A stretch of 32,000 bases of DNA from Kiritimatiella glycovorans. Its GTDB lineage: Bacteria; Verrucomicrobiota; Kiritimatiellia; Kiritimatiellales; Kiritimatiellaceae. Below, piece by piece: positions 975 through 29,661 of the stretch. Position 1 is the stretch's first letter. Every line of letters begins with the position of its first letter. The stretch is taken from the NCBI RefSeq assembly GCF_001017655.1, contig NZ_CP010904.1:1170001-1202000 (forward strand), given 5' to 3'. The position numbers and the translations under genes are program-made. Below the pieces are notes generated by a model. The model was not told where the DNA came from. It worked only from the letters and a program-made list of their open reading frames with translations, and did not search any database.

Positions 975-2045
975 ATGATGTCGGATGGGACCGGAACCTT
1001 TGAACGGAAACTCGGCGACGGGCGGGTCCAGTGCACGGTATGCCCGCATCACTGTTCTCTCCGGGAGGGGGAGCGGGGAAAATGCTTCGTCCGGCGACGC
1101 GAGGACGGTCATGTCGTCTGCACCACCTACGGGAAGTCGAGCGGCTTCTGTATTGATCCGGTGGAGAAGAAACCCCTCTATCACTTCCTGCCCGGGACGC
1201 CCGTGCTCTCCCTGGGCACGGCGGGCTGTAATCTCTCCTGCTCCTTCTGTCAGAACTGGCACCTGAGCCATTCGCGCCAGGTGGCGACGACCGCGGAGGA
1301 GGCCGCGCCCGAAGCCATCGCGCGAACGGCGGAGCGCCACGGCTGCCGCAGTGTGGCGTTCACCTACAATGAACCGGTCATCTATCTCGAGTACGCGGTC
1401 GATGCGGCACGGGCCTGCCGCGCGCGCGGCATCCGTACCGTGGCGGTCACGGCGGGATATATCTCGCCCGGGGCACGCAGAACCTTCTTCGCGCACATGG
1501 ACGCCGCGAACGTCGATCTCAAGGCGTTTTCCGAGGATTTCTACCGCCGTCTGTGCGGCGTACATCTCAAGCCGGTGCTCGATACGCTCGTGTATCTCAA
1601 ACACGAGACCGACGTCTGGCTGGAACTGACGACACTGCTCATTCCCGGTGAAAACGACCGCGACGAGGAACTCGACGCCATGACCCGCTGGGTGGTCTCG
1701 GAACTCGGTCCCGACGTTCCGCTGCACTTCTCGGCCTTTCATCCCGCCGGCGAGATGAATCATGTCGCCCCGACTTCGCTCGAAACGCTGGAACGCGCGC
1801 GCGGCATCGCTCGAGACAACGGCCTCCGCTTTGTCTACCTCGGAAATATCAGCACGGTCGAAGCGGGCCGCACCTACTGTCCGGGCTGCGGTGCGCGGCT
1901 CATCGACCGCCAGGGCTACCGGCTGCGGGGGTGGGGGCTCGACGAACAGGGCCGCTGCGCCTCCTGCGGGGTGGTCTGCCCGGGGGTCTTCGAATCCGGA
2001 CCCGGCATGTGGGGTCCCCGCTGCATGCCGGTCGAGGTGGGATAG
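975..2045 (+). CDS. AmmeMemoRadiSam-system radical SAM enzyme (pyruvate formate-lyase activase-like)
   Basis: 356-aa ORF with an N-terminal CTVCPHHCSLREGERGKC motif, a GCNLSCSFCQNW CxxxCxxC radical SAM motif and a C-terminal Cys cluster (CPGCG...CASCG). Confidence 0.85.
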   Translation: MMSDGTGTFERKLGDGRVQCTVCPHHCSLREGERGKCFVRRREDGHVVCTTYGKSSGFCIDPVEKKPLYHFLPGTPVLSLGTAGCNLSCSFCQNWHLSHSRQVATTAEEAAPEAIARTAERHGCRSVAFTYNEPVIYLEYAVDAARACRARGIRTVAVTAGYISPGARRTFFAHMDAANVDLKAFSEDFYRRLCGVHLKPVLDTLVYLKHETDVWLELTTLLIPGENDRDEELDAMTRWVVSELGPDVPLHFSAFHPAGEMNHVAPTSLETLERARGIARDNGLRFVYLGNISTVEAGRTYCPGCGARLIDRQGYRLRGWGLDEQGRCASCGVVCPGVFESGPGMWGPRCMPVEVG

Positions 2046-2073
2046 GGATGGCGCGAAGCCTCTGAAGTGCGGC

Positions 2074-2100
2074 GATCCTGCTGAACGGCAGGATCTTTTT
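2074..2100 (+). terminator. intrinsic terminator after the radical SAM gene
   Basis: 8-bp stem gatcctgc/gcaggatc (2074-2081 / 2088-2095), 6-nt loop, then T5 (2096-2100). Confidence 0.6.
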
Positions 2101-2104
2101 GAAA

Positions 2105-2123
2105 GCGCGGACGGTATCCGCGC
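2105..2123 (-). terminator. possible terminator hairpin after the LptF/G gene (minus strand)
   Basis: 7-bp GC-rich stem gcgcgga/tccgcgc with a 5-nt loop, 11 nt beyond the minus-strand stop. It is followed on the minus strand by tttcaaaaa. Confidence 0.4.
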
Positions 2124-2133
2124 ACGCCGGCGG

Positions 2134-3225
2134 CTATCTCATCCGGTAGACCAGCGCCGCCCCGATCACGAGAAAGATCAGCACCGGGGCGCCCGCGCCG
2201 GCGACGGGATCCAGGAGTTCCTTTTTAGCCAGTGCTTCGCCGGTGAGCTGGCACAGGTAGTAGCCGAAGAAGAACAGCAGCGTGGTCGCCACGCCGGCGA
2301 ACACCCCTTGGCGGCCGGTGTGAGCGCCTACGGGGATGCCCAGCAGAACGACGATCACACACACCCACGGCGTCGCCAGCCGGTGCATGAGGTCCGTCCG
2401 TTTGCGTGCGCGCACTTCGTCGGAGAGCTGAGGATTGCGCCGGAGGTAGTGTCTCAATTCCGCGGCGGACATGAACTCGGTGGGTTTGATCACGCTGAGA
2501 AAATCGCGGGGGTTTTCGGTGAGGCGGGTCATCTCCTTCTGCAGCGCGAATTCCGGCGCGCCTTTCAGGTTCCCGTCGGCATCGAACTCGCGCACGGTCA
2601 CATCCATGAACCACCAGCGGCCGTCGATCCACAGGGCGCGCTGCGTCTCGTATTCCGTGGCGGAGCCCCCCGGATGCTGCTGCGTCATGGTGACGCCGTG
2701 CATCGTATAGTCGCGCGTGTCGAACCGCTCGACAAACCAGTCGCGGTTGCGCCGGGGAAGCTTCAGGGGCAGGGCGGCGGCGAAGTAGACCTCGCTGCGC
2801 TCATCGGGATCGGACTCGTGATAGGCCATGAGCTGCTCCGCCCTCCAGGCTGCATCCGGCGCGTAGCGCTCGTTGATCAAAAACGTGGCGGCACTGGCGA
2901 CCAGACCCACCACCAGGTACGGTCCCGCCAGCCGGTAGATGCTGATGCCCGTCGCCCGCATCGCCGTGATCTCGTGGTGCCGGCTGAGGCGGGCCAGGCT
3001 GTAGAGCACCCCCAGCAAAAGGGCGGCGGGGATGATCAGCGTGAGAAACGAGGGAAGCTGCAGGGCGTAGTACCGGAACACCGCGACCGCGGGGAAATCG
3101 TGCTCGATAAAATCCGACGATTTGTCCACCATGTCGTAGATGACATAGAGCAGCGTGAAGCCCGTAAGGATACACCCGAGCGGAAGCAGCAGTTTTCCCA
3201 GGAGATAGCGATAGATCAGCTTCAT
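2134..3225 (-). CDS. LptF/LptG family LPS export permease (YjgP/YjgQ)
   Basis: 363-aa ORF. The N-terminus MKLIYRYLLGKLLLPL..., multiple TM segments and a central periplasmic domain are typical of the LptF/G family. Confidence 0.85.
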   Translation of the reverse strand: MKLIYRYLLGKLLLPLGCILTGFTLLYVIYDMVDKSSDFIEHDFPAVAVFRYYALQLPSFLTLIIPAALLLGVLYSLARLSRHHEITAMRATGISIYRLAGPYLVVGLVASAATFLINERYAPDAAWRAEQLMAYHESDPDERSEVYFAAALPLKLPRRNRDWFVERFDTRDYTMHGVTMTQQHPGGSATEYETQRALWIDGRWWFMDVTVREFDADGNLKGAPEFALQKEMTRLTENPRDFLSVIKPTEFMSAAELRHYLRRNPQLSDEVRARKRTDLMHRLATPWVCVIVVLLGIPVGAHTGRQGVFAGVATTLLFFFGYYLCQLTGEALAKKELLDPVAGAGAPVLIFLVIGAALVYRMR

Positions 3226-3255: not shown

Positions 3256-4884
3256 ATGAGCAAGCGCACAGCCGACGGGGAGCATCGGACCTACGAGACC
3301 GGACTGCACCCCGACCCCTCGGTCACCCCTCCCGACGATGCCGTCATGATCCTCCTCGGCGCCTCCGGCGACCTGACCCGGCGAAAACTGGTGCCGGCGC
3401 TGTTTCAACTGTACCGCTCCGGCCTTATGCCCGGACGGTTTGCGATTATCGGCGTGGCGCGTCGTCCTTACGACGATCCAAGTTTCCGGGAACGCCTGCG
3501 CGAGGGGATCAGGGAACGGTGCGCTCCGCAGGACGAGGAGGACCGGTGTTCGGAGTTCCTCGAGCACGTGGAATACTTCCGCGGCGATCTCGAGGCGCCC
3601 GACACGTATGCGTCGCTGCGCGATCATCTCGACCGGGGCGGCGATCGCTATCCGTCCGGCCGACTGTTCTACTTTTCTCTCAAACCCGACCTCTTCATCG
3701 AAGCGGCGCACCACCTCCGGGAGCACGGTCTGATCGATTCCGATTCGGCGGCTCAGGCGGGGGAGGGCGCCTGGCGGAGGGCCGTCATCGAAAAGCCTTT
3801 CGGACACGACCTGGAATCCGCCCGCGCGCTGAACCGGGCGCTGCTCGAAGGGCTGGACGAGAAGCAGATCTTCCGGATCGATCATTATGTCGGCAAAGAG
3901 GCGGTACAGAACGTCATGGCCTTCCGGTTCGCCAACACGCTTTTTGAACCGGTGCTGAACCGGACGTGCGTCGACCACATTCAGCTCACCGCGGCGGAGG
4001 CGCTCGGGGTCGGCGGCGGACGCGGGGGGTATTATGACCGCTACGGCGCGATCCGCGACATGCTCTCCAATCACCTCCTCCAGCTGCTGGCCCTGCTGAC
4101 CATGGAGCCGCCCTCCGGGCTCGACTCCGATGCCATTCACAATGAGAAGACGAAAGTGCTGAAGGCCCTGCGCGTGGACTGGCGCGGCGACGCCTCGCCG
4201 GCCTTCTGCCGCGCCCAGTACGCGGCCGGCGTGATGGATGACGGAACCAGGGCGGTCGGGTATCGGGACGAGGATCGGGTCGACCGCGATTCCGAAACGG
4301 AGTCGTATGCCGCCGTGCGGCTGTCCATCGACAACTGGCGCTGGTCCGGCGTGCCCGTGTTCGTCCGGACCGGAAAGAGGATGAAACGCAAACTGACCGA
4401 AGTGGCGGTGCATTTTCGTCATCCGCCCTTAAAGCTTTTCCGCGGAGTGGAGTGTGAAGGGGCGCATTGCGACGTGCGGGGGGTGCAGCCGAACAAACTG
4501 ATCTTCCGCATCCAGCCGCAGGAGGGCATCTTTCTGAACATGGCCGTCAAACGCCCGACGCTGCCCTTTGTCGTGGAGCAGGCGGATATGGATTTCTCCT
4601 ACGCCGGCAAGTGGGGGCGTGAACTGCCGGAGGCCTACGAGCGCCTGCTGCTGGACGCCTTGCGGGGCGACACCACGCTCTTCACGCGGTCGGATGAAGT
4701 CGAGGCCGGCTGGTCGGTAGTCGAACCTGTACTCAAGGCCATGGACCGGACGCCGCTCTATTCCTATCCGGCCGGGTCCTGGGGGCCGGCCGAAGCGGAT
4801 CGCCTTTTCCAGTGTTCCGATCTCCCCGACGAATGCCTCTGCCGCAAGACGGGACTCGTGAGGGCATGGCATAACCCGCAGTAG
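3256..4884 (+). CDS. zwf: glucose-6-phosphate dehydrogenase
   Basis: In-frame ATG at 3256 preceded by ggaggagg. LLGASGDLTRRKLVPAL dinucleotide-binding motif, RIDHYVGKE active-site motif, conserved C-terminal half. The upstream part of the 1040-aa ORF is antisense to the Lpt gene. Confidence 0.93.
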   Translation: MSKRTADGEHRTYETGLHPDPSVTPPDDAVMILLGASGDLTRRKLVPALFQLYRSGLMPGRFAIIGVARRPYDDPSFRERLREGIRERCAPQDEEDRCSEFLEHVEYFRGDLEAPDTYASLRDHLDRGGDRYPSGRLFYFSLKPDLFIEAAHHLREHGLIDSDSAAQAGEGAWRRAVIEKPFGHDLESARALNRALLEGLDEKQIFRIDHYVGKEAVQNVMAFRFANTLFEPVLNRTCVDHIQLTAAEALGVGGGRGGYYDRYGAIRDMLSNHLLQLLALLTMEPPSGLDSDAIHNEKTKVLKALRVDWRGDASPAFCRAQYAAGVMDDGTRAVGYRDEDRVDRDSETESYAAVRLSIDNWRWSGVPVFVRTGKRMKRKLTEVAVHFRHPPLKLFRGVECEGAHCDVRGVQPNKLIFRIQPQEGIFLNMAVKRPTLPFVVEQADMDFSYAGKWGRELPEAYERLLLDALRGDTTLFTRSDEVEAGWSVVEPVLKAMDRTPLYSYPAGSWGPAEADRLFQCSDLPDECLCRKTGLVRAWHNPQ

Positions 4885-4889
4885 CGCCC

Positions 4890-5731
4890 CTACTTCAAGC
4901 CGAATTCACGCAGTGCGGCCTCGAAGTCTTCCGGGATCGGGGCGCTGGTGCGCACCTCATTTCCGAGGCGGGGGTGAGGGAAGGACAGGCGGTAGGCGTG
5001 CAGCATCTGGCGCGGGAGCAGCGCCAGACGGTCGTCCGGGAACACATGGGCCGGGCAGGATTTGTCCCCGGCGACGGGATGTCCCTCACGACTCAGGTGC
5101 CGCCGGATCTGGTGGGTGCGTCCGGTCAGAATCCGGATTTCAAGGTAGCTCGCGCTGCGGTTCGCGTCCAGCCGGCGCAGATCCGTCAGGGCCTCCTGTC
5201 CGTCGACCGTACTCCGGATGCGGTCCTCCTTCCGGGGCCACCGCCCGGCGGCGATCGCCCGGTAGATTTTGGTCACGCGCCGGTCGCGAAACAGATCGAT
5301 CGCCGCGCGCCGCGCTTCCGGATGTTTCGCGAAAAGCACACACCCCGTAGTGTCCCGGTCGAGCCGGTGCACCGCACGGAGGCTTTGTGCGCCCGACCGC
5401 CGACGCAGGAGCGCCTCCAGCGATGAGGGATCGCTCTCGGTCAACAGACCCGCGGATTTGTCGGCGACGAGATAATCCTCATCCTCGAACAGTACGCGAA
5501 CGCCCCCCGCGGAAGGAGCGGGTTCGTGTACGGGTTTTTCGAGCGAGACGTCGACCACGTCCCCGGGATTGAGTTCGTGTTTCGCCATCCAGGTGCGACG
5601 CCGGTTCACGAACACGTTGCGGCGGTCCAGCAGGGCCTTGGCCTTCTTTTTCGAGAGGCCGAGCTGGCGCGCGAGGTAGTCGACGAGCGCAAGACGCCGC
5701 TCGCCGGGTTTCACATGGAGGGTGCGCGTTT

Positions 5732-23862: not shown

Positions 23863-24991
23863 AGCCTCCATCCCGGGCCGCCTCGCCGCGCTGGACTGGA
23901 TCGGCGCGTGCGCGATCCTGCTGCTGATGGCGGCGGGATGCCTGTTCATCTACAGCGCGTCCGACGCGCTGGGCAGCGCTTCGCTGTTCCGGCGCCAGCT
24001 GATGTGGTGCGTGATCGGTCTCGTCTGCTTTGCGGGGGTGGCCCTGATCGATTACCGCATGCTGCGCAAGTACGCCGCCCCCGTCTACCTCGCGGCGCTG
24101 GCCGCGCTCGTGCTGGTGCTCTTCGTCGGAAAGTCCGTCTACGGCGCGAACCGCTGGATCTCGATCGCCGGAGTCCAGATCCAGCCCTCCGAACCGGCCA
24201 AGCTCGCGCTCGTGCTGACCCTCGCCGCGTGGCTCAGCGATCCCGGCCGCGACCCCGAATCCCCGTGGACGCTCTGGGGCGCGCTCGCACTCACGGCGCC
24301 GCCGTTTCTGCTCGTCGCGCTGGAACCCGATCTCGGGACGGCGATGGTCTTCGCCCCGCTCTGCCTGGCCATGGCCTTCGCCGGCGGCGCGCGGCTCCGC
24401 GACTGGACGGGACTGGTGCTCTTCGGCCTCGCCGCCGTGGCGGGACTGGTCCTCTGGCTGAAATTTTTCCCGGACCAGTGCCCCTTTCTCACGGAGTACC
24501 AGACGAACCGTATTCTCGTGTTCGTCGACCCCGGCCGCGACCCCCTGGGCGCGGGCTGGAACAAGCTGCAGTCGGAAATCGCCGTCGGCTCCGGCGGCTG
24601 GTTCGGTAAAGGCTATATGCAGGGGACCCAGAACGTGCTGGGGTTTCTGCCGAAAACCGTCGCGCCCACCGACTTCATCTTTTCGGTGCTGGCCGAGGAG
24701 TCGGGGTTTGCCGGGGCGCTGATCGTGATCGGACTGTACGGCGTCCTGCTGGCGCGCTGCGGCCGCGCCGCGCTGCGCGCCCGCGACGCGTTCGGACGCC
24801 ATCTCGCGACGGGGGTGACCGTGCTGCTGTTCACCCATGTGTTCGTCAATATCGGGATGACCGTGGGGCTGATGCCGATCACGGGTCTCCCGCTGCCGCT
24901 GCTGAGTTACGGAGGAAGTTTTATGGTGAGTACGATGATGGCCCTCGGGCTGGTGCAGAGCGTCTACGTGAGACGCCGGCGCAGGGCGTGA
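23855..24991 (+). CDS. rodA: SEDS-family peptidoglycan polymerase RodA
   Basis: FtsW/RodA/SpoVE family features (QPSEPAKL, TDFIFSVLAEE, PLPLLSYGGS). 8-nt overlap with the mrdA 3' end. Confidence 0.9.
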   Translation: MRKASIPGRLAALDWIGACAILLLMAAGCLFIYSASDALGSASLFRRQLMWCVIGLVCFAGVALIDYRMLRKYAAPVYLAALAALVLVLFVGKSVYGANRWISIAGVQIQPSEPAKLALVLTLAAWLSDPGRDPESPWTLWGALALTAPPFLLVALEPDLGTAMVFAPLCLAMAFAGGARLRDWTGLVLFGLAAVAGLVLWLKFFPDQCPFLTEYQTNRILVFVDPGRDPLGAGWNKLQSEIAVGSGGWFGKGYMQGTQNVLGFLPKTVAPTDFIFSVLAEESGFAGALIVIGLYGVLLARCGRAALRARDAFGRHLATGVTVLLFTHVFVNIGMTVGLMPITGLPLPLLSYGGSFMVSTMMALGLVQSVYVRRRRRA

Positions 24992-25020
24992 ATGTGAGCG
25001 ATACAAGGAAAGGAAGAGTC

Positions 25021-26607
25021 ATGCTGAAGAAGATATCCAAAAAAATAGCCGGGGATCGTAGAATGCCGAGAGAAGTTGTCATCAATGTGGAGAAACTGGA
25101 GACACGCGTCGCCGTGCTCGAAGAAGGCCAGCTCGAGGATTTTCATATCGAGCGGTCGGAGACCGAGCGACTGGTCGGCAGCATCTTCAAGGGGAAAATC
25201 CAGAACCTTGAGGACGGGCTGCAGGCGGCGTTTGTCGATATCGGTCTCAAAAAGAACGCCTTCATCCATTACTGGGACATGATCCCCGAAGATGCGGCCC
25301 GCCTCGAACGGGCCGACGGGGGCGGGCGCGGACGCGGCGGGGGACGCCGGAAGAAGTACAAGCCCGGCGAGATGCAGAAAATCCATCCGGTAGGGTCCGA
25401 GATCGTGGTGCAGGTCACCAAGGACGCCATCGGCACCAAGGGGCCGCGCGTCACCGCCAACCTCAGTGTCCCCGGCCGCTACCTCGTCATGATGCCCGGC
25501 AGCAGCCTGAAAGGCATCTCGCGCAAGATCGACGACTCGAAGGAAAGGGCCCGGCTGAAGAAGATCCTCGCCCGGCTGCCGCTCCCCGAGGACGTCGGCG
25601 TGATCGTACGCACGGCCGGGCTGGGCACCCGCAAGACCTCGTTCGTGCGCGATGTGCGCACGCTGCTGGAAATATGGACGGAGATCGAGAAGGGAATCCG
25701 GGAGCATCCCGCCCCCTGCCGACTCTACCAGGAACCCAACCTCGCCGAGCGTACCGTGCGCGACCTGCTTACGGAGGACATCGACCGCATCTATATCGAT
25801 GACCGGCACGAATACGAACAGCTGCGTCAGCTCGTGGCGCGCTTTTCGCGCCGCGCCAAAGGCAAAGTGCAACTCTACGAGGGATCGGCGCCGGTCTTCG
25901 ACTACTTCGAGGTCGAAAAGCAGATCGAGAACGTCTTCAAAAAACGGGTCTGGCTGAAGTCGGGGGGATACCTCATCTTCGACGAAACCGAGGCGCTGGT
26001 GGCGATTGATGTGAATACCGGCCGGCACAAGGGTTCAAAGACACAGGCCGAATCGATCCTCGAGGTCAATAAGGAGGCGGCCCAGGAGGTCAGCCGCCAG
26101 GTGAGGCTGCGCAATATCGGGGGGCTGCTGGTGGTCGATTTCATCGACATGAAGAGCAAAAAGGACCAGCAGGCGGTCTACCGGATGCTGAAGGAGGGCC
26201 TGAAAAAGGATAAGGCCCGCACCAACGTCCTGCCGATTTCACAGCTCGGACTGCTCGAGATGACGCGTCAGCGGGTTGAGGAGAGCGTGCGCGACACGAC
26301 GCGGACGGACTGCGCCTACTGCGAAGGACGCGGAAAGGTCAAATCGCCGCTGAGCATGAGCGTCGAGATCCAGCGCCGGATCAGCGCGATCCTGCGCGAC
26401 AAGCGCGTCTCCCATAACCTCAAGGTGAAGGTCAATCCGAGTATCCTCGACCGTTTCCGGAAAGAGGACGAAGAGGACCTGCTCGATCTCGAGCACCGGT
26501 TTAACGGACACCTGACCTTCGTTTCGGACCCCCACCTCCACATGGAGGACTTCATGATCACCAGAGAAGACGACGGCGAAGTGCTGTTCCGGGCGCACGA
26601 AGGGTAG
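25021..26607 (+). CDS. rng: ribonuclease E/G family protein (RNase G size)
   Basis: S1 domain (GSIFKGKIQNLEDGLQAAFVDIG), a catalytic region (AIDVNTG, RNIGGLLVVDFIDM) and a CAYCEGRG zinc-link. The ATG at 25021 is preceded by aggaaaggaag. It follows the mre genes, as rng does in E. coli. Confidence 0.88.
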   Translation: MLKKISKKIAGDRRMPREVVINVEKLETRVAVLEEGQLEDFHIERSETERLVGSIFKGKIQNLEDGLQAAFVDIGLKKNAFIHYWDMIPEDAARLERADGGGRGRGGGRRKKYKPGEMQKIHPVGSEIVVQVTKDAIGTKGPRVTANLSVPGRYLVMMPGSSLKGISRKIDDSKERARLKKILARLPLPEDVGVIVRTAGLGTRKTSFVRDVRTLLEIWTEIEKGIREHPAPCRLYQEPNLAERTVRDLLTEDIDRIYIDDRHEYEQLRQLVARFSRRAKGKVQLYEGSAPVFDYFEVEKQIENVFKKRVWLKSGGYLIFDETEALVAIDVNTGRHKGSKTQAESILEVNKEAAQEVSRQVRLRNIGGLLVVDFIDMKSKKDQQAVYRMLKEGLKKDKARTNVLPISQLGLLEMTRQRVEESVRDTTRTDCAYCEGRGKVKSPLSMSVEIQRRISAILRDKRVSHNLKVKVNPSILDRFRKEDEEDLLDLEHRFNGHLTFVSDPHLHMEDFMITREDDGEVLFRAHEG

Positions 26608-26695: not shown

Positions 26696-26710
26696 CGAAA
26701 ATTAGCGTGT

Positions 26711-26742
26711 CGGGGCCGGCCCGGCGGGCACGGTCTTTTCAT
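26711..26742. repeat. left subterminal inverted repeat of the IS
   Basis: gggcacggtcttttcat (26726-26742) is the perfect reverse complement of 28581-28597. A GC-rich imperfect extension (ggccggcc) lies on both sides. Confidence 0.8.
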
Positions 26743-26824
26743 ATGGGCGGCGATTCCGAGCTTCGGGGGGCGCTGGAATGAGTGCCGGACTACTATGACT
26801 GACAAGATAAAGGGCTCGAGGAAG

Positions 26825-26974
26825 CGGTTCGATTACGTGTATCCGAGTAAGTGTTGCGGTGAAGAAAGCGGTTAAGGGTTCGTGGAAGTGTATGGAGGGC
26901 GCAGTCCACACTTCAGCGGACCCTTCGTCGCCCCCTTAACCGCCACCTTTACTCGGATACGCTTAATCGATCCG
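26825..26974 (-). ncRNA. candidate bridge/seek guide RNA: 150-nt imperfect hairpin in the IS 3' non-coding region
   Basis: The 26-position outer stem (26825-26850 / 26949-26974) has 2 mismatches and 1 G-T. Inside are an 11-bp stem gcggttaaggg/cccttaaccgc, a 7-bp stem gaagtgt/acacttc and two asymmetric internal loops. The strand is assumed to be that of the transposase. Confidence 0.4.
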
Positions 26975-26986
26975 TCGTACTTCTGA

Positions 26987-26999
26987 CACGGTCTTTTCA
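26987..26999 (+). repeat. internal third copy of the inverted-repeat core
   Basis: cacggtcttttca is identical to 26729-26741, in the same orientation and 258 bp further in. Confidence 0.7.
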
Positions 27000-27409
27000 A
27001 AATTTGGGGGCACCCATTAGAGGTTCCGGTCAAACACAAAAGTCCCCTTCGTGCCGCTGATCAAGCGGCTTCCCTTCATGCCTTGTTTTGATCGGATTCA
27101 ACCGTCGCCTCAACCGTTGCGTTCCGTACCGTGGTTTTCGTTTGCGGTTGTTTCAGTCACCCATCTGGTTTTTAGGTGAGGGCGAATCTTTTCCAGATCC
27201 ATGGCCGCCACCCGTTCTCGTATTGGAGCCAGAAAACCGTTTGTTCCCGCTCGTTGCCTATTCAGTCACCGTGGTTCATCTGCACGCAGACTTCCAGACC
27301 CTTGAAGGCTGACGACAGGACAGACCGCAAAAGCTGAAGCGATGCCGCCGGTTCCAATCAGTCCGCTGATTTAAGCAGACCCCTAGCCGGTTCCCGGCAG
27401 CATCGGGTT

Positions 27410-28438
27410 TTAAAACAACATTCCCATTACATATTCCTCCCCGTTCATGACATGCCAAACGGCTTTGGACAATTTTGCCGCCAAGGCCTTCTTCGCCACA
27501 ATCGCGTTGCGCTTTTTCTTCTTCCGGTCATACCAGGATTGAATCTCCGGATAAAAGCGCGGAGCGAAGCTCGCGGCTTCAACGAAAGCCCATGCGAGAA
27601 ACGGATTGCCGTTGCGCTTATTGTTCTCACCTTTCTTCCTGCTGTTGGAACTTCGCTCACTTTTGACGGCGCGGCAGTAGGAGGCGTAGCATCCCGCGTT
27701 CGGGAAGCGGGCGAAGTTGCCGCTTTCAAGCACGATGGTCATCCCAAGCGCCTTCCCGATGCCCGGCACGGTCTGAACCTGTTCAAACGATGGGTTGGGC
27801 TCAATAAACCCCAGCACCGCTGATTCGATCTGTCCGGCCAGCCGCTCACTGCACTGGACCGCCTCAAGCAACGTGCGGAGTTGAAGCTGTACGAACGGAT
27901 CAAGGCCCGTCGCCTCGACATCCGCCTGCGTCCACTGCTGAAGAGCACGCGATCCCGGCGCCTTGAATCCGTAACGCTCCAGCAGGCTTTGCAGGCTGAG
28001 CATAACCTGGGTGCGCCGCCTGACAAACAGCTGTCGGCGTCGAAGCGCGTCGCGAATCGAACGAACCTCCTTCGGATAAATGTAGCTCTCCGGGAAAATA
28101 TCCAATCGGAGCAGTTCGGCCAGCCAACGAGCATCCGATGCGTCATCGGCATGTTTCAACCCCTTGTACTGTTTCATCTTCGCCGGATTCCCCAATCGCA
28201 CGTCCCGGTTCTGCTCACGCAAGCCGTCCACCAGCCAGTACCAGTTGAACGTGGACTCAATCCCCATCGCCTGAACCTGCGGCCAGTAGGGATCCATCGC
28301 CTCATTGACTGCATCGAGCGTGGTTCGTACCCGCCGCCGGAAGACTTCCGTGCCTTCCCGGTCGCAAATCGAGAGAAAAACATTGTTTCCATGCAGGTCG
28401 GCTCCTGCGTACAATTCCTTTGCGCTGGTCGTTTGCAT
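27410..28438 (-). CDS. IS110-family transposase (DEDD/RuvC-like N-domain plus Transposase_20 C-domain)
   Basis: 342 aa. The motif series GADLHGNNVF, GIESTFNWYW, KHADDASDARWLAELLR, VPGIGKALGMTIVLESGNFARF and NGNPFLAWAFVEAA is typical of IS110/IS116/IS902 transposases. aaggag lies 9 nt upstream of the ATG. Confidence 0.93.
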   Translation of the reverse strand: MQTTSAKELYAGADLHGNNVFLSICDREGTEVFRRRVRTTLDAVNEAMDPYWPQVQAMGIESTFNWYWLVDGLREQNRDVRLGNPAKMKQYKGLKHADDASDARWLAELLRLDIFPESYIYPKEVRSIRDALRRRQLFVRRRTQVMLSLQSLLERYGFKAPGSRALQQWTQADVEATGLDPFVQLQLRTLLEAVQCSERLAGQIESAVLGFIEPNPSFEQVQTVPGIGKALGMTIVLESGNFARFPNAGCYASYCRAVKSERSSNSRKKGENNKRNGNPFLAWAFVEAASFAPRFYPEIQSWYDRKKKKRNAIVAKKALAAKLSKAVWHVMNGEEYVMGMLF

Positions 28439-28580
28439 ATCCGGTACTCCTTTCGTTTTTGCTTAAACAAAGAGTACGTTGCATTCGACCAGCGTCTATT
28501 TCAAAGAACCTCTATATGGTTATCAGTCCGCCTAAATCATTTTGTGTTCGGCCCGAAAACATTGACCCGAACGCCATGAC

Positions 28581-28610
28581 ATGAAAAGACCGTGCCCCGG
28601 CGGCCGGCCG
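28581..28610. repeat. right subterminal inverted repeat of the IS
   Basis: atgaaaagaccgtgccc (28581-28597) is the reverse complement of 26726-26742, followed by cggcggccggccg. Confidence 0.8.
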
Positions 28611-28645
28611 CTGCGAATAGGCTGGCCCGAAGGATTCCGGCGAGC

Positions 28646-28651
28646 TATAAT
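28646..28651 (+). promoter_or_regulatory. consensus -10 hexamer upstream of moxR, abutting the IS end
   Basis: Perfect TATAAT 33 nt upstream of the moxR ATG. No good -35 lies at 17-nt spacing (tggccc). Confidence 0.3.
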
Positions 28652-28683
28652 CCGTATCTTTGCATCGAAGGAAGGAAGAGCGC

Positions 28684-29661
28684 ATGGAGGGCGATACCGC
28701 CGCAATAGGAAACCGCCTCAAAGAGGTGCGCGAGGCCATGGCGTCCGTGGTGGTCGGTCAGCAGGCCCTGATCGAACGGATGCTGATGGCCCTGCTCTGC
28801 AACGGCCACGTCCTGCTCGAGGGCGTGCCCGGCGTGGCCAAAACGCTGATCGTCAAGTCGCTCGCCTCCGCCCTCGGTGCGGATTTCAGCCGCATCCAGT
28901 TCACACCGGACCTGCTGCCGGGCGACGTGATCGGCACCCGGATCTATCATCACCGCACGGGATCGTTCGAAACGGAACGGGGGCCGGTCTTCGCCAACCT
29001 CGTGCTGGCGGACGAGATCAACCGCGCCCCGGCCAAGGTCCAGAGCGCACTGCTCGAGGCCATGCAGGAACGACAGGTGACGCTGGGACACGATACGCAC
29101 CGGCTCCCCGATCCTTTCATGGTGCTCGCCACCCAGAACCCCATCGAACAGGAAGGCACCTACAGCCTGCCCGAGGCCCAGGTGGACCGTTTTATGGCCA
29201 AGCTGCTGGTGGACTACCCCGCGCCCGATGAAGAGCAGACCATCCTGCGCCGCATGGCCCGTCCCGCCCCGTCCATGCACGTCGAGCCGGTGGCCTCGCT
29301 GGAGGAGATCAGGCAGATGCGCGCAGCCCTCGAACAGATCTTCATGGCCCCGGAAATCGAGCAGTATATCCTCCGGCTGGTCGCCGCCACGCGCGTGCCC
29401 GCCTCCTGCGGCCTCGAGGAACTCCAACCCTATATCCGGTTCGGGGCGTCGCCGCGCGCCACCATCTATCTCGCCCTGTTCGCCCGGGCGCACGCCCTGG
29501 TCCGCGAGAGGGATTACGTGGTGCCGGACGACGTCAAGGCGGTGCTGCATGATGTGACCCGCCACCGGGTCGCCATCAGCTACCGCGCCGAGGCGGAAGG
29601 ACTGAACTCAGAGCGCCTGCTGGATCGTATCGTCGAGCAGGTGCCCGTCAACGGGACCTAG
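28684..29661 (+). CDS. MoxR-family AAA+ ATPase
   Basis: VVGQQALIERMLMALLCNGHVLLEGVPGVAKT (Walker A), LADEINRA (Walker B) and the conserved MoxR C-terminus. gaaggaaggaag lies upstream of the ATG. Confidence 0.92.
   Translation: MEGDTAAIGNRLKEVREAMASVVVGQQALIERMLMALLCNGHVLLEGVPGVAKTLIVKSLASALGADFSRIQFTPDLLPGDVIGTRIYHHRTGSFETERGPVFANLVLADEINRAPAKVQSALLEAMQERQVTLGHDTHRLPDPFMVLATQNPIEQEGTYSLPEAQVDRFMAKLLVDYPAPDEEQTILRRMARPAPSMHVEPVASLEEIRQMRAALEQIFMAPEIEQYILRLVAATRVPASCGLEELQPYIRFGASPRATIYLALFARAHALVRERDYVVPDDVKAVLHDVTRHRVAISYRAEAEGLNSERLLDRIVEQVPVNGT

Follow-up and report, generated by a model that had tools for sequence, protein, structure and literature searches.

What is the mobile element that lies between the rng and moxR genes of Kiritimatiella glycovorans, and where does it begin and end? 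The window considered here, that is, the whole stretch of DNA analysed, comprises 32,000 nucleotides (nt) of this bacterium (assembly GCF_001017655.1, contig NZ_CP010904.1, positions 1,170,001 to 1,202,000), and the transposase encoded in it matches a protein of that species at 100% identity. A first-pass annotation had drawn a single IS1111-type insertion sequence of 1.9 kb between the two genes, from position 26696 to 28620 of the window, with subterminal inverted repeats of 17 bp and a 3' non-coding region of about 670 nt that might hold an extended guide RNA or additional cargo. Its placement was borne out, with RNase G (rng, 24988-26607) and a MoxR AAA ATPase confirmed as the neighbouring genes; its outline was not. 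Our analysis indicates that the element is, very probably, a single and apparently intact insertion sequence of 1,516 bp that belongs to the IS110 superfamily, carries a guide RNA 3' of its gene in an IS1111-like layout, and lies inside a palindromic unit. The boundaries, the structure of the RNA, and the matching and covariation of its guide arms with the flanking DNA were all observed in silico, and the coordinates of the features are collected in Table 1.

The ends were located by comparison with related loci (designated L in the following), which were gathered both from scans of genomes and metagenomes (at most 70% identity) and from exact lookups of protein matches (76-96%). When the region was compared with all loci by blastn, similarity ran from ~28529 to ~27006 and never beyond; in the comparisons with L161-L169 and L081-L084 the limits fell at 28526-28547 and 27005-27019, and the same limits held for relatives 96.7% identical in DNA. 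L166 and L167, two copies that share a 983-kb metagenomic contig, agree at every base over exactly 1,516 bp, and two whole contigs of nearly the same size, L163 (1,516 bp) and L162 (1,518 bp), begin with TGATAACC and ACTGATAACC, respectively, and both finish with GGGTGAC. Additionally, about 60 loci, spread over many phyla, have the same tips, TGATAA... and ...AATGGGTGA, and beyond these their DNA is unrelated. The stop in homology, the identical 1,516-bp copies and the shared tips therefore delimit the element to 27010-28525, with its left end (in IS orientation) at 28525 and its right end at 27010; the 3-nt core is included in this length once, at the right end. The subterminal inverted repeat is a perfect 9 bp, and its two copies covary across relatives (TAAAGG/CCTTTA, TTAAGGGC/GCCCTAA). 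TGA stands at the left junction and, among relatives, also at the right one, with flanks that are otherwise unrelated and show no target-site duplication. An AC core dinucleotide, assumed in our initial model, was dropped because the bases left of TGA differ between subclades and track the guide, and an 18-nt match between 27024-27041 and 28540-28557 proved to be at chance level for a region of this size.

These ends, fixed with the copies in relatives, split the interval 26700-27400: 26700-27009 falls outside the insertion sequence, and 27010-27400 belongs to it. The non-coding sequence accordingly amounts to 87 nt 5' of the gene, instead of the ~150 nt proposed earlier, and to 400 nt 3' of it, instead of ~670 nt. 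In 13 of 13 relatives measured, the distance from the stop codon to the conserved right-end tip is 404-453 nt, and a 3' region once taken to be unusually long or loaded with cargo is of normal length for the clade. The extra DNA, ~290 bp at the low-coordinate side of the window's element and 84 bp at the high-coordinate side, is flanking DNA of a separate palindromic element. The reported drop in guanine-plus-cytosine (GC) content to ~50% was correct in direction and overstated in size: GC is 55.4% over the longer span and 55.2% over the true element, against 64.3% in the whole window.

The description of the gene as a complete DEDD transposase gene on the minus strand held up, being confirmed by the open reading frame (ORF), by two Pfam domains and by an NCBIfam equivalog. 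PF01548 (DEDD_Tnp_IS110) matched residues 11-156 (E = 7.7e-14; 52.2 bits, cut-off 29), PF02371 (Transposase_20) matched with E = 7.3e-12 (46 bits, cut-off 21.3), and NF033542, 'IS110 family RNA-guided transposase', scored 168.4 bits against a cut-off of 140. Four acidic residues that are invariant across 22 relatives, D14, E61, D99 and D102, probably constitute the DEDD set. S264 is also invariant and is aligned by hhalign with the serine of the SG motif in IS1111A, which suggests that it is probably the catalytic serine, followed by N265 where glycine is usual; in a phmmer alignment to ISCro4 the register is shifted by one residue, with S263 at the serine position. Within the clade, R256, V258, R262, S264 and N265 are all invariant.

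Following the stop codon, the non-coding region has the features of a structured RNA. An alignment of 14 non-coding regions, extending down to 50% protein identity, revealed conservation along the entire length, and RNAalifold predicted 73 pairs, 26 of them with compensatory changes, in four domains that the single-sequence fold reproduces (z = -3.7). Domain 1 begins 2 nt past the stop codon and is built of a 12-bp stem, a 4-bp stem and an internal loop with a small central hairpin. Of 169 related loci, ~121 have a match to its covariance model (R1) immediately behind the stop codon; in an alignment of 68 distinct sequences, 93.6% of cells are paired, 18 of the 19 pairs show changes on both sides, and the covariation score reaches 0.611, compared with at most 0.099 for slid-partner controls. 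Domain 2 is matched weakly by the same model (17 bits, E = 0.0024, filters off), and its arms read UCAAGGGUC and CGGUGAC-UGA; the 5' arm is constant, and the 3' arm varies in a distant subclade, matching neither flank there. In domain 3, a GGUUUUC/GAAAACC stem encloses variable hairpins together with the motif CCAGAUGGGUGACUGAAAC (27150-27168).

The two arms of the domain 1 loop appear to be the guides for the target. The left flank of the window's element (in IS orientation), GCGGAC, followed by the first bases of the element, TGA, spells the 3' arm, and the reverse complement of the 5' arm CUAGGGGUC is GA-CCCCTAG, the DNA to the right of the element being CCCCAAA. Because both arms overlap on GA, the core is taken as (T)GA, and the CCC that follows it is nearly invariant in the clade. 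Individual relatives show the correspondence at divergent sequences: CAAGGGC occurs in arm and flank alike in L094, as does GGATC in L002; the arm GACCGCTCA of L005 faces the flank GA/CCGCTCA; and in L091 the arm ACCCCTTTC, with one further C in the adjoining stem, accompanies right flanks that both read ACCCCTTTCC. Across 47 distinct guide/flank pairs, the left arm matched at 210 of 282 positions, against 120.5 +/- 7.8 after permutation, and positions +4 to +8 of the right arm matched at 163 of 320, against 123.1 +/- 7.1; in neither case did any of 2000 permutations reach the observed value (z of ~11 on the left and ~6 on the right). Together, the structural covariation and the guide-flank covariation support the first-pass proposal of a guide RNA encoded 3' of the gene. 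Of the two arms, the one complementary to the top strand stands 5' of the other, which is complementary to the bottom strand, the order that has been reported for IS1111-type seekRNAs and the reverse of that in IS110-type RNAs (PMC11187229).

Recognition of the donor ends may involve domain 3, which we consider the candidate donor-binding part. Its motif CCAGAUGGGUGACUGAAAC copies the right-end tip AATGGGTGA(C), and in four loci, with five right ends between them, the segment AUGGxUGAC and the right end AATGGxTGA change together, with G replaced by C in L112, L129 and L134 (twice) and by A in L063. A candidate 5' donor arm, (A)CGGUUUUC, follows the left end in part, ATGATTTTC occurring with TAATCAT and GGTTTTC with TAACCAT. 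Roles for domains 2 and 3 are putative at most. Also conserved are TTGAC at the right end and GATAA(C/T) at the left, and across joined ends they would give TTGACC-N16-GATAAC; no promoter-like site was found in the linear left end, and a promoter that forms only upon circularisation would fit the known biology of IS110 and IS1111 elements.

Taken together, these features are best explained by the following course of events. The 3' region would be transcribed with or after the recombinase gene to give a multi-domain guide RNA of the bridge RNA or seekRNA kind, in which the 5' arm of domain 1 would pair with the top strand of the core and right target (GA-CCCC...) and the 3' arm with the bottom strand of the left target and core (GCGGAC-TGA). 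The downstream motif AUGGGUGAC, a copy of the right-end tip, probably helps to recognise the donor ends along with the inverted repeats. A complex of recombinase and RNA would then have inserted a circular copy at GCGGAC-TG(A/C)-CCCC, without target duplication, into the interior of the ~383-bp palindromic, hairpin-forming element between rng and moxR. The putative circular intermediate is predicted to have the junction ...CCTCTAATGGG-TGA-TAACCATATAG....

Table 1. Coordinates of the insertion sequence, its parts and the surrounding palindromic unit in the window
Feature	Position	Strand	Evidence
Whole insertion sequence, 1,516 bp	27010..28525	-	blastn limits; identical copies L166/L167; end alignments
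DEDD transposase/recombinase, 342 aa	27410..28438	-	Domain matches, invariant columns, profile alignments
RNA domain 1, proposed target-binding loop	27338..27407	-	Covariance model R1, 84 bits, E = 4e-18
Putative 5' guide arm CUAGGGGUC	27378..27386	-	Complementary to top strand GA-CCCC of right flank
Putative 3' guide arm GCGGAC-UGA	27358..27366	-	Identical to left flank plus core
RNA domain 2, paralogous loop module	27240..27324	-	RNAalifold compensatory pairs; weak R1 match
RNA domain 3	27132..27239	-	GGUUUUC/GAAAACC stem with compensatory changes; motif covaries with right-end tip
Conserved hairpin GCCGCUUGAUCAGCGGC near right end	27053..27069	-	Pair 460/468: six sequences with compensatory changes
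Candidate -35 box of circle-junction promoter, TTGACC	27028..27033	-	Reading of the sequence; putative
Left subterminal inverted repeat TAGAGGTTC, 11 nt from tip	28506..28514	-	Covaries with right repeat in relatives
Right subterminal inverted repeat GAACCTCTA, 8 nt from tip	27018..27026	-	End alignments
Left-junction core TGA	28523..28525	-	Upstream bases vary by copy and agree with each element's guide
Right-junction core, TGC here, TGA in nearly all relatives	27010..27012	-	End alignments
Left target half GCGGAC, flanking DNA	28526..28531	-	End alignments
Right target half CCCC, flanking DNA	27006..27009	-	End alignments
Left part of flanking palindromic element	26714..27009		29-nt arm 26714-26742, hairpin 26825-26974, 13-mer 26987-26999
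Right part of flanking palindromic element	28526..28609		29-nt arm 28581-28609

Several points weigh against this interpretation of the locus. The boundaries rest on copies in other genomes, and mobility in K. glycovorans and the exact crossover point are putative. Positions +1 to +3 of the right target (CCC) barely vary in the clade, and by sequence alone their assignment to the target rather than to the element falls short of full proof, although L021/L022 and both right ends of L091 diverge just past CCC. The 3' RNA matches no Rfam family, and its transcription and processing are presumed. The assignment of donor binding rests on few independent changes, the candidate 5' donor arm is also predicted to form a stem with the downstream GAAAACC, with compensatory changes, and the -10 box of the proposed junction promoter (GATAAC) is weak in this copy. 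Finally, the right-junction core at 27010 is TGC and not TGA, and this copy may be unable to excise. Taken further, that difference would make the locus a fossil, a dead and fixed copy whose excision is blocked by an A-to-C change in the core. The right junction reads GGGTGC where ~60 relatives have GGGTGA, it mismatches the element's own AUGGGUGAC motif, and there is a single copy within the 32-kb window. However, the ORF is intact with every invariant residue retained, all RNA domains are intact, the DNA is 96.7% identical to a multi-copy relative, and other relatives are also non-consensus at the right core (GGGCGA in L004, L031, L060, L098, L104 and L153). The GGGCGA relatives suggest that the variant base may come from an imperfect target rather than from later mutation, and we consider a dead copy rather unlikely.

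The DNA on either side of the insertion sequence raises a further question, that of its own nature. The perfect 17-bp repeats noted earlier (26726-26742 and 28581-28597) do exist, and they extend to 29 nt at 86% identity (26714-26742 and 28581-28609; arm sequence GGCCGGCCCGGCGGGCACGGTCTTTTCAT). By chance, 0.15 matches would be expected; what does not stand is their role as the subterminal repeats of the element. Their 13-nt core, CACGGTCTTTTCA, has a third copy at 26987-26999, making three in all, two direct and one inverted, and it was this copy that first cast doubt on the repeats as a mere pair of ends of a single element. Once the insertion sequence is taken out in silico, the ~383-bp unit closes into one fold of -198 kcal/mol, in which the 29-nt repeat forms the outer stem and the interior holds a 150-nt imperfect hairpin (26825-26974); the flank folds are stable on both strands, with z = -5.2 and -6.5. 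Without the 258-bp segment between the direct 13-mers (26729-26741 and 26987-26999), which looks like a further insertion or duplication, the remainder is predicted to form a clean hairpin whose stem has 29 bp. Within the unit, the insertion sequence occupies an interior loop, 10 nt from the inner 13-mer. Repeats far above chance, a GC content of 56-58% that is lowered like that of the insertion sequence, and strong structure are what a single 1.9-kb IS1111-type element from 26696 to 28620, with 17/29-bp subterminal repeats and an extended guide or cargo in a 670-nt 3' region, would have in its favour. Against it, 26714-27005 and 28530-28609 occur in no relative, the conserved tips and covarying 9-bp repeats of the family lie well inside the span, and the guide arms of the element match the DNA just outside 27010 and 28525, as target flanks should. 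The guide-RNA model R1 found nothing significant in the extra DNA (best flank match 6.4 bits, E = 1.2, filters off), and the hairpin apex (AAGGGTC...GGACTG), tried as a stray guide module, was rejected on the same score. We regard the single long element as highly improbable.

If the flank is separate, it could itself have been mobile. The ~383 bp would then be an element resembling a miniature inverted-repeat transposable element (MITE), non-autonomous or a remnant, with 29-bp terminal inverted repeats, into which the insertion sequence landed later; such nesting is compatible with our interpretation of the insertion sequence, because only the nature of the flank is at issue. The similarity of the 29-nt arms, the third 13-mer, the single closed hairpin with its clean stem once the 258 bp are taken out, and a GC content below the 64% of the host all point in this direction, as does the preference of IS1111-type elements for palindromic repeats, among them repetitive extragenic palindromic (REP) sequences, attC sites and the inverted repeats of transposons (PMC11187229). 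The palindromic context is in itself unsurprising, because known IS1111-type elements often target such repeats. What stands against a MITE-like flank is that no target-site duplication is evident and that no second copy was found: none was detected in the window or, by blastn, in plasmids and phages, its longest ORF (69 aa) had no homologue in a protein search, and the 17-mer had a single hit in viral contigs (L170), with 19 nt in common and unrelated neighbouring sequence, compatible with chance. Alternatively, the flank could be native host DNA, such as a terminator or attenuator of rng, a leader or operator of the MoxR operon, or a structured small RNA, and the guide match would then be fortuitous. 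Its place is exactly between the stop codon of rng (26607) and the start of moxR (~28686), with a TATAAT-like box at 28647-28652, ~120 bp from the left end of the insertion sequence; its folds are strongly stable on both strands, and the three 13-mers could be protein-binding sites. In opposition to this, it has no Rfam match and a GC content lower than that of the host, and in the two closest relatives (75-76% RNase G identity) other genes and an unrelated intergenic sequence come after rng, which means that conservation cannot be demonstrated. We hold a MITE-like origin to be possible rather than probable, and native DNA likewise has a minority claim on our judgement.

The relation of the 1,516-bp insertion sequence to described elements was assessed with 15 reference transposases, derived from ISfinder and taken from the supplementary FASTA file of PMC11187229, together with a motif search of that file. 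Against the six IS1111-group references (IS1111A, IS4321, ISEc11, ISKpn4, ISDar1 and ISRta3) the transposase scored 26-54 bits, whereas these six, five named members and ISRta3, score 130-330 bits among themselves; scores against IS110-type references were equally weak (27-77 bits). Profile comparison by hhalign gave 112.9 for ISCth7, 94.4 for IS1111A, 85.8 for ISEc11 and 51.2 for IS621, and the sole match to a solved structure was ISCro4 (PDB 9t56, E = 0.0045). Ten of eleven short clade motifs (including NWYW, LRRRQ and RNGNP) are absent from the reference set, GNPYL occurring once, in ISRta3, and the clade was not detected among the ISfinder-derived reference proteins of the seekRNA paper by a search with these eleven motifs. 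Measured against the 15 references, the protein appears to fall outside both the IS1111 and the IS110 clusters. The earlier assignment to an IS110-family element with IS1111-like layout is thus upheld for the layout (repeats, 3' region, 342 aa) and not for membership in the IS1111 cluster: the element belongs to the IS110 superfamily and has an IS1111-like organisation, and it is not a member of the IS1111 family in the strict sense (Partridge & Hall; Siddiquee et al. 2024).

The resemblance to IS1111 elements with seekRNA (ISEc11, ISKpn4, ISPa11, IS4321/IS5075; PMC11187229) extends to subterminal inverted repeats with short extensions beyond them, a longer non-coding side downstream of the transposase gene (here 400 against 87 nt), and a transposase of 330-350 aa (here 342), which is colinear with IS1111A over 315 columns (hhalign probability 97.9%). 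It further includes a guide RNA that begins just past the stop codon with the same order of arms, and site-specific insertion into a palindromic target context with no duplication beyond the shared core. In contrast, transposase identity is only 19-23%, the IS1111 motif GL-P----S(T)G is replaced by RA-K----SN (aligned segment CRAVKSERSSN), and the non-coding region has 400 nt, compared with ~270 nt in ISEc11. The structured RNA here measures ~290-400 nt with three loop modules, whereas seekRNAs have been reported at 82-96 nt (short form) and ~150 nt (long form). With the IS110-type elements IS621 and ISCro4, which use a bridge RNA (PMC13626964), ours shares a RuvC-like DEDD domain plus a Tnp domain with serine, internal-loop modules whose two arms would each pair with a different strand, one to each side of a short core, an arm that extends one base beyond the core, resembling a handshake guide, and a predicted circle-junction promoter. 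They differ in that their RNA lies 5' of the gene and not 3', with the arm order reversed, and in their CT core, whereas here the core is (T)GA and there are inverted repeats and an extra middle loop; similarity of the proteins is very weak (IS621 hhalign 51, ISCro4 E = 0.0045). ISCth7, of the IS110-family reference set, ranks top among the 15 references (hhalign 112.9, probability 98.6%; blastp 78 bits), but it has 406 aa with a ~70-aa insertion in the variable region and only 24% blastp identity. Modular elements of the ISPpu9 type (PMC12288879) have a parallel in the tandem partial modules of the relatives L091, L168 and L134, and differ in that the 13-mer of the window flank is not an element end and no hitch-hiking small-RNA module is bounded by element ends.

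The clade is extensive and widely distributed, with 5,817 proteins at E <= 1e-10 in hosts that include Verrucomicrobiota, Desulfobacterota, Nitrospirota, Acidobacteriota, Gammaproteobacteria, Chloroflexota and others; among 72,556 plasmids, a protein search returned only 158 records, of which the best had 42% identity. The architecture is common to more than 100 relatives in many phyla. It is conceivable, though we are doubtful, that these elements form a large, widespread IS110-superfamily clade distinguished by an asparagine beside the serine, a (T)GA-CCC target and three paralogous guide loops. As part of the same idea, and no more than tentatively, the 300-400-nt 3' RNA would combine three loops: a programmable one for the target, one for the donor tip, and a conserved one in the middle. 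The arms of the middle loop resemble the right end and right flank, and it could be a dedicated excision or right-junction loop.

Some distant relatives carry two tandem target-loop modules with different left-arm guides, namely L095 (1598-1671 and 1702-1775), L019, L061, L121, L127 and L134. The tandem guides of L121 are TTTGGTT and ACAGAAC, and in each tandem case one of the two matches the actual left flank; such tandem loops may confer dual target specificity. Several loci also contain rearranged or interrupted copies. In L091 (4477-4687), a miniature derivative of ~210 bp directly follows the right end of a full element and consists of a left-end copy (111 nt, 93%) and a right-end copy (94 nt, 99%), after which the same right flank, CCCTTTCC, resumes. 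L168 (2653-2700) has the solo first 30 nt of a left end with 18 nt of flank, 241 bp upstream of a full element, and L134 (863-3005) has a 1,074-bp tandem repeat of the 3' part of the transposase gene, the non-coding region and the right end, which starts in the last bases of the first right end and could be real or an assembly artefact. In two cases the tip is interrupted by a different mobile element beside the right subterminal repeat, after AACCTCT in L164 (~1581-3000), where a 457-aa IS110-family gene is found, and after AACCTCTA in L167 (~4427-5420), where a DDE_3-type gene fragment is found. The 96%-identical relative in L161 (1-687) lies ~15 bp from a gene that carries a group II intron maturase domain (GIIM), on the opposite strand.

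As for the surroundings of the element in the window, the MoxR ORF as listed begins with TTG at 28660, and the ATG at 28686, with GGAAGGAAGAG ahead of it, is the more likely start. A scan for tRNA genes found none, and Rfam gave nothing relevant in the region at E <= 1 or in the whole window at gathering scores.

For annotation, these results mean that the mobile element at this locus is 1,516 bp long and that the 29-bp inverted repeats belong to something else. The element provides a cleanly delimited example from the Kiritimatiellota of a clade of RNA-guided recombinases that has an IS1111-like layout but forms a lineage of its own in sequence. The biology of this uncatalogued clade is ordinary and leaves the known mechanism unchanged; the only leads toward anything new are the multi-loop RNA and the tandem target loops of some relatives, which, if our suggestion about them is true, would let one recombinase-RNA complex address more than one target. 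Guide-flank covariation makes the programmable positions of the target loop directly readable, namely the 5-6 nt left of TGA and, on the right, positions +4 to +7, and the clade may serve as a further source of programmable recombinases.

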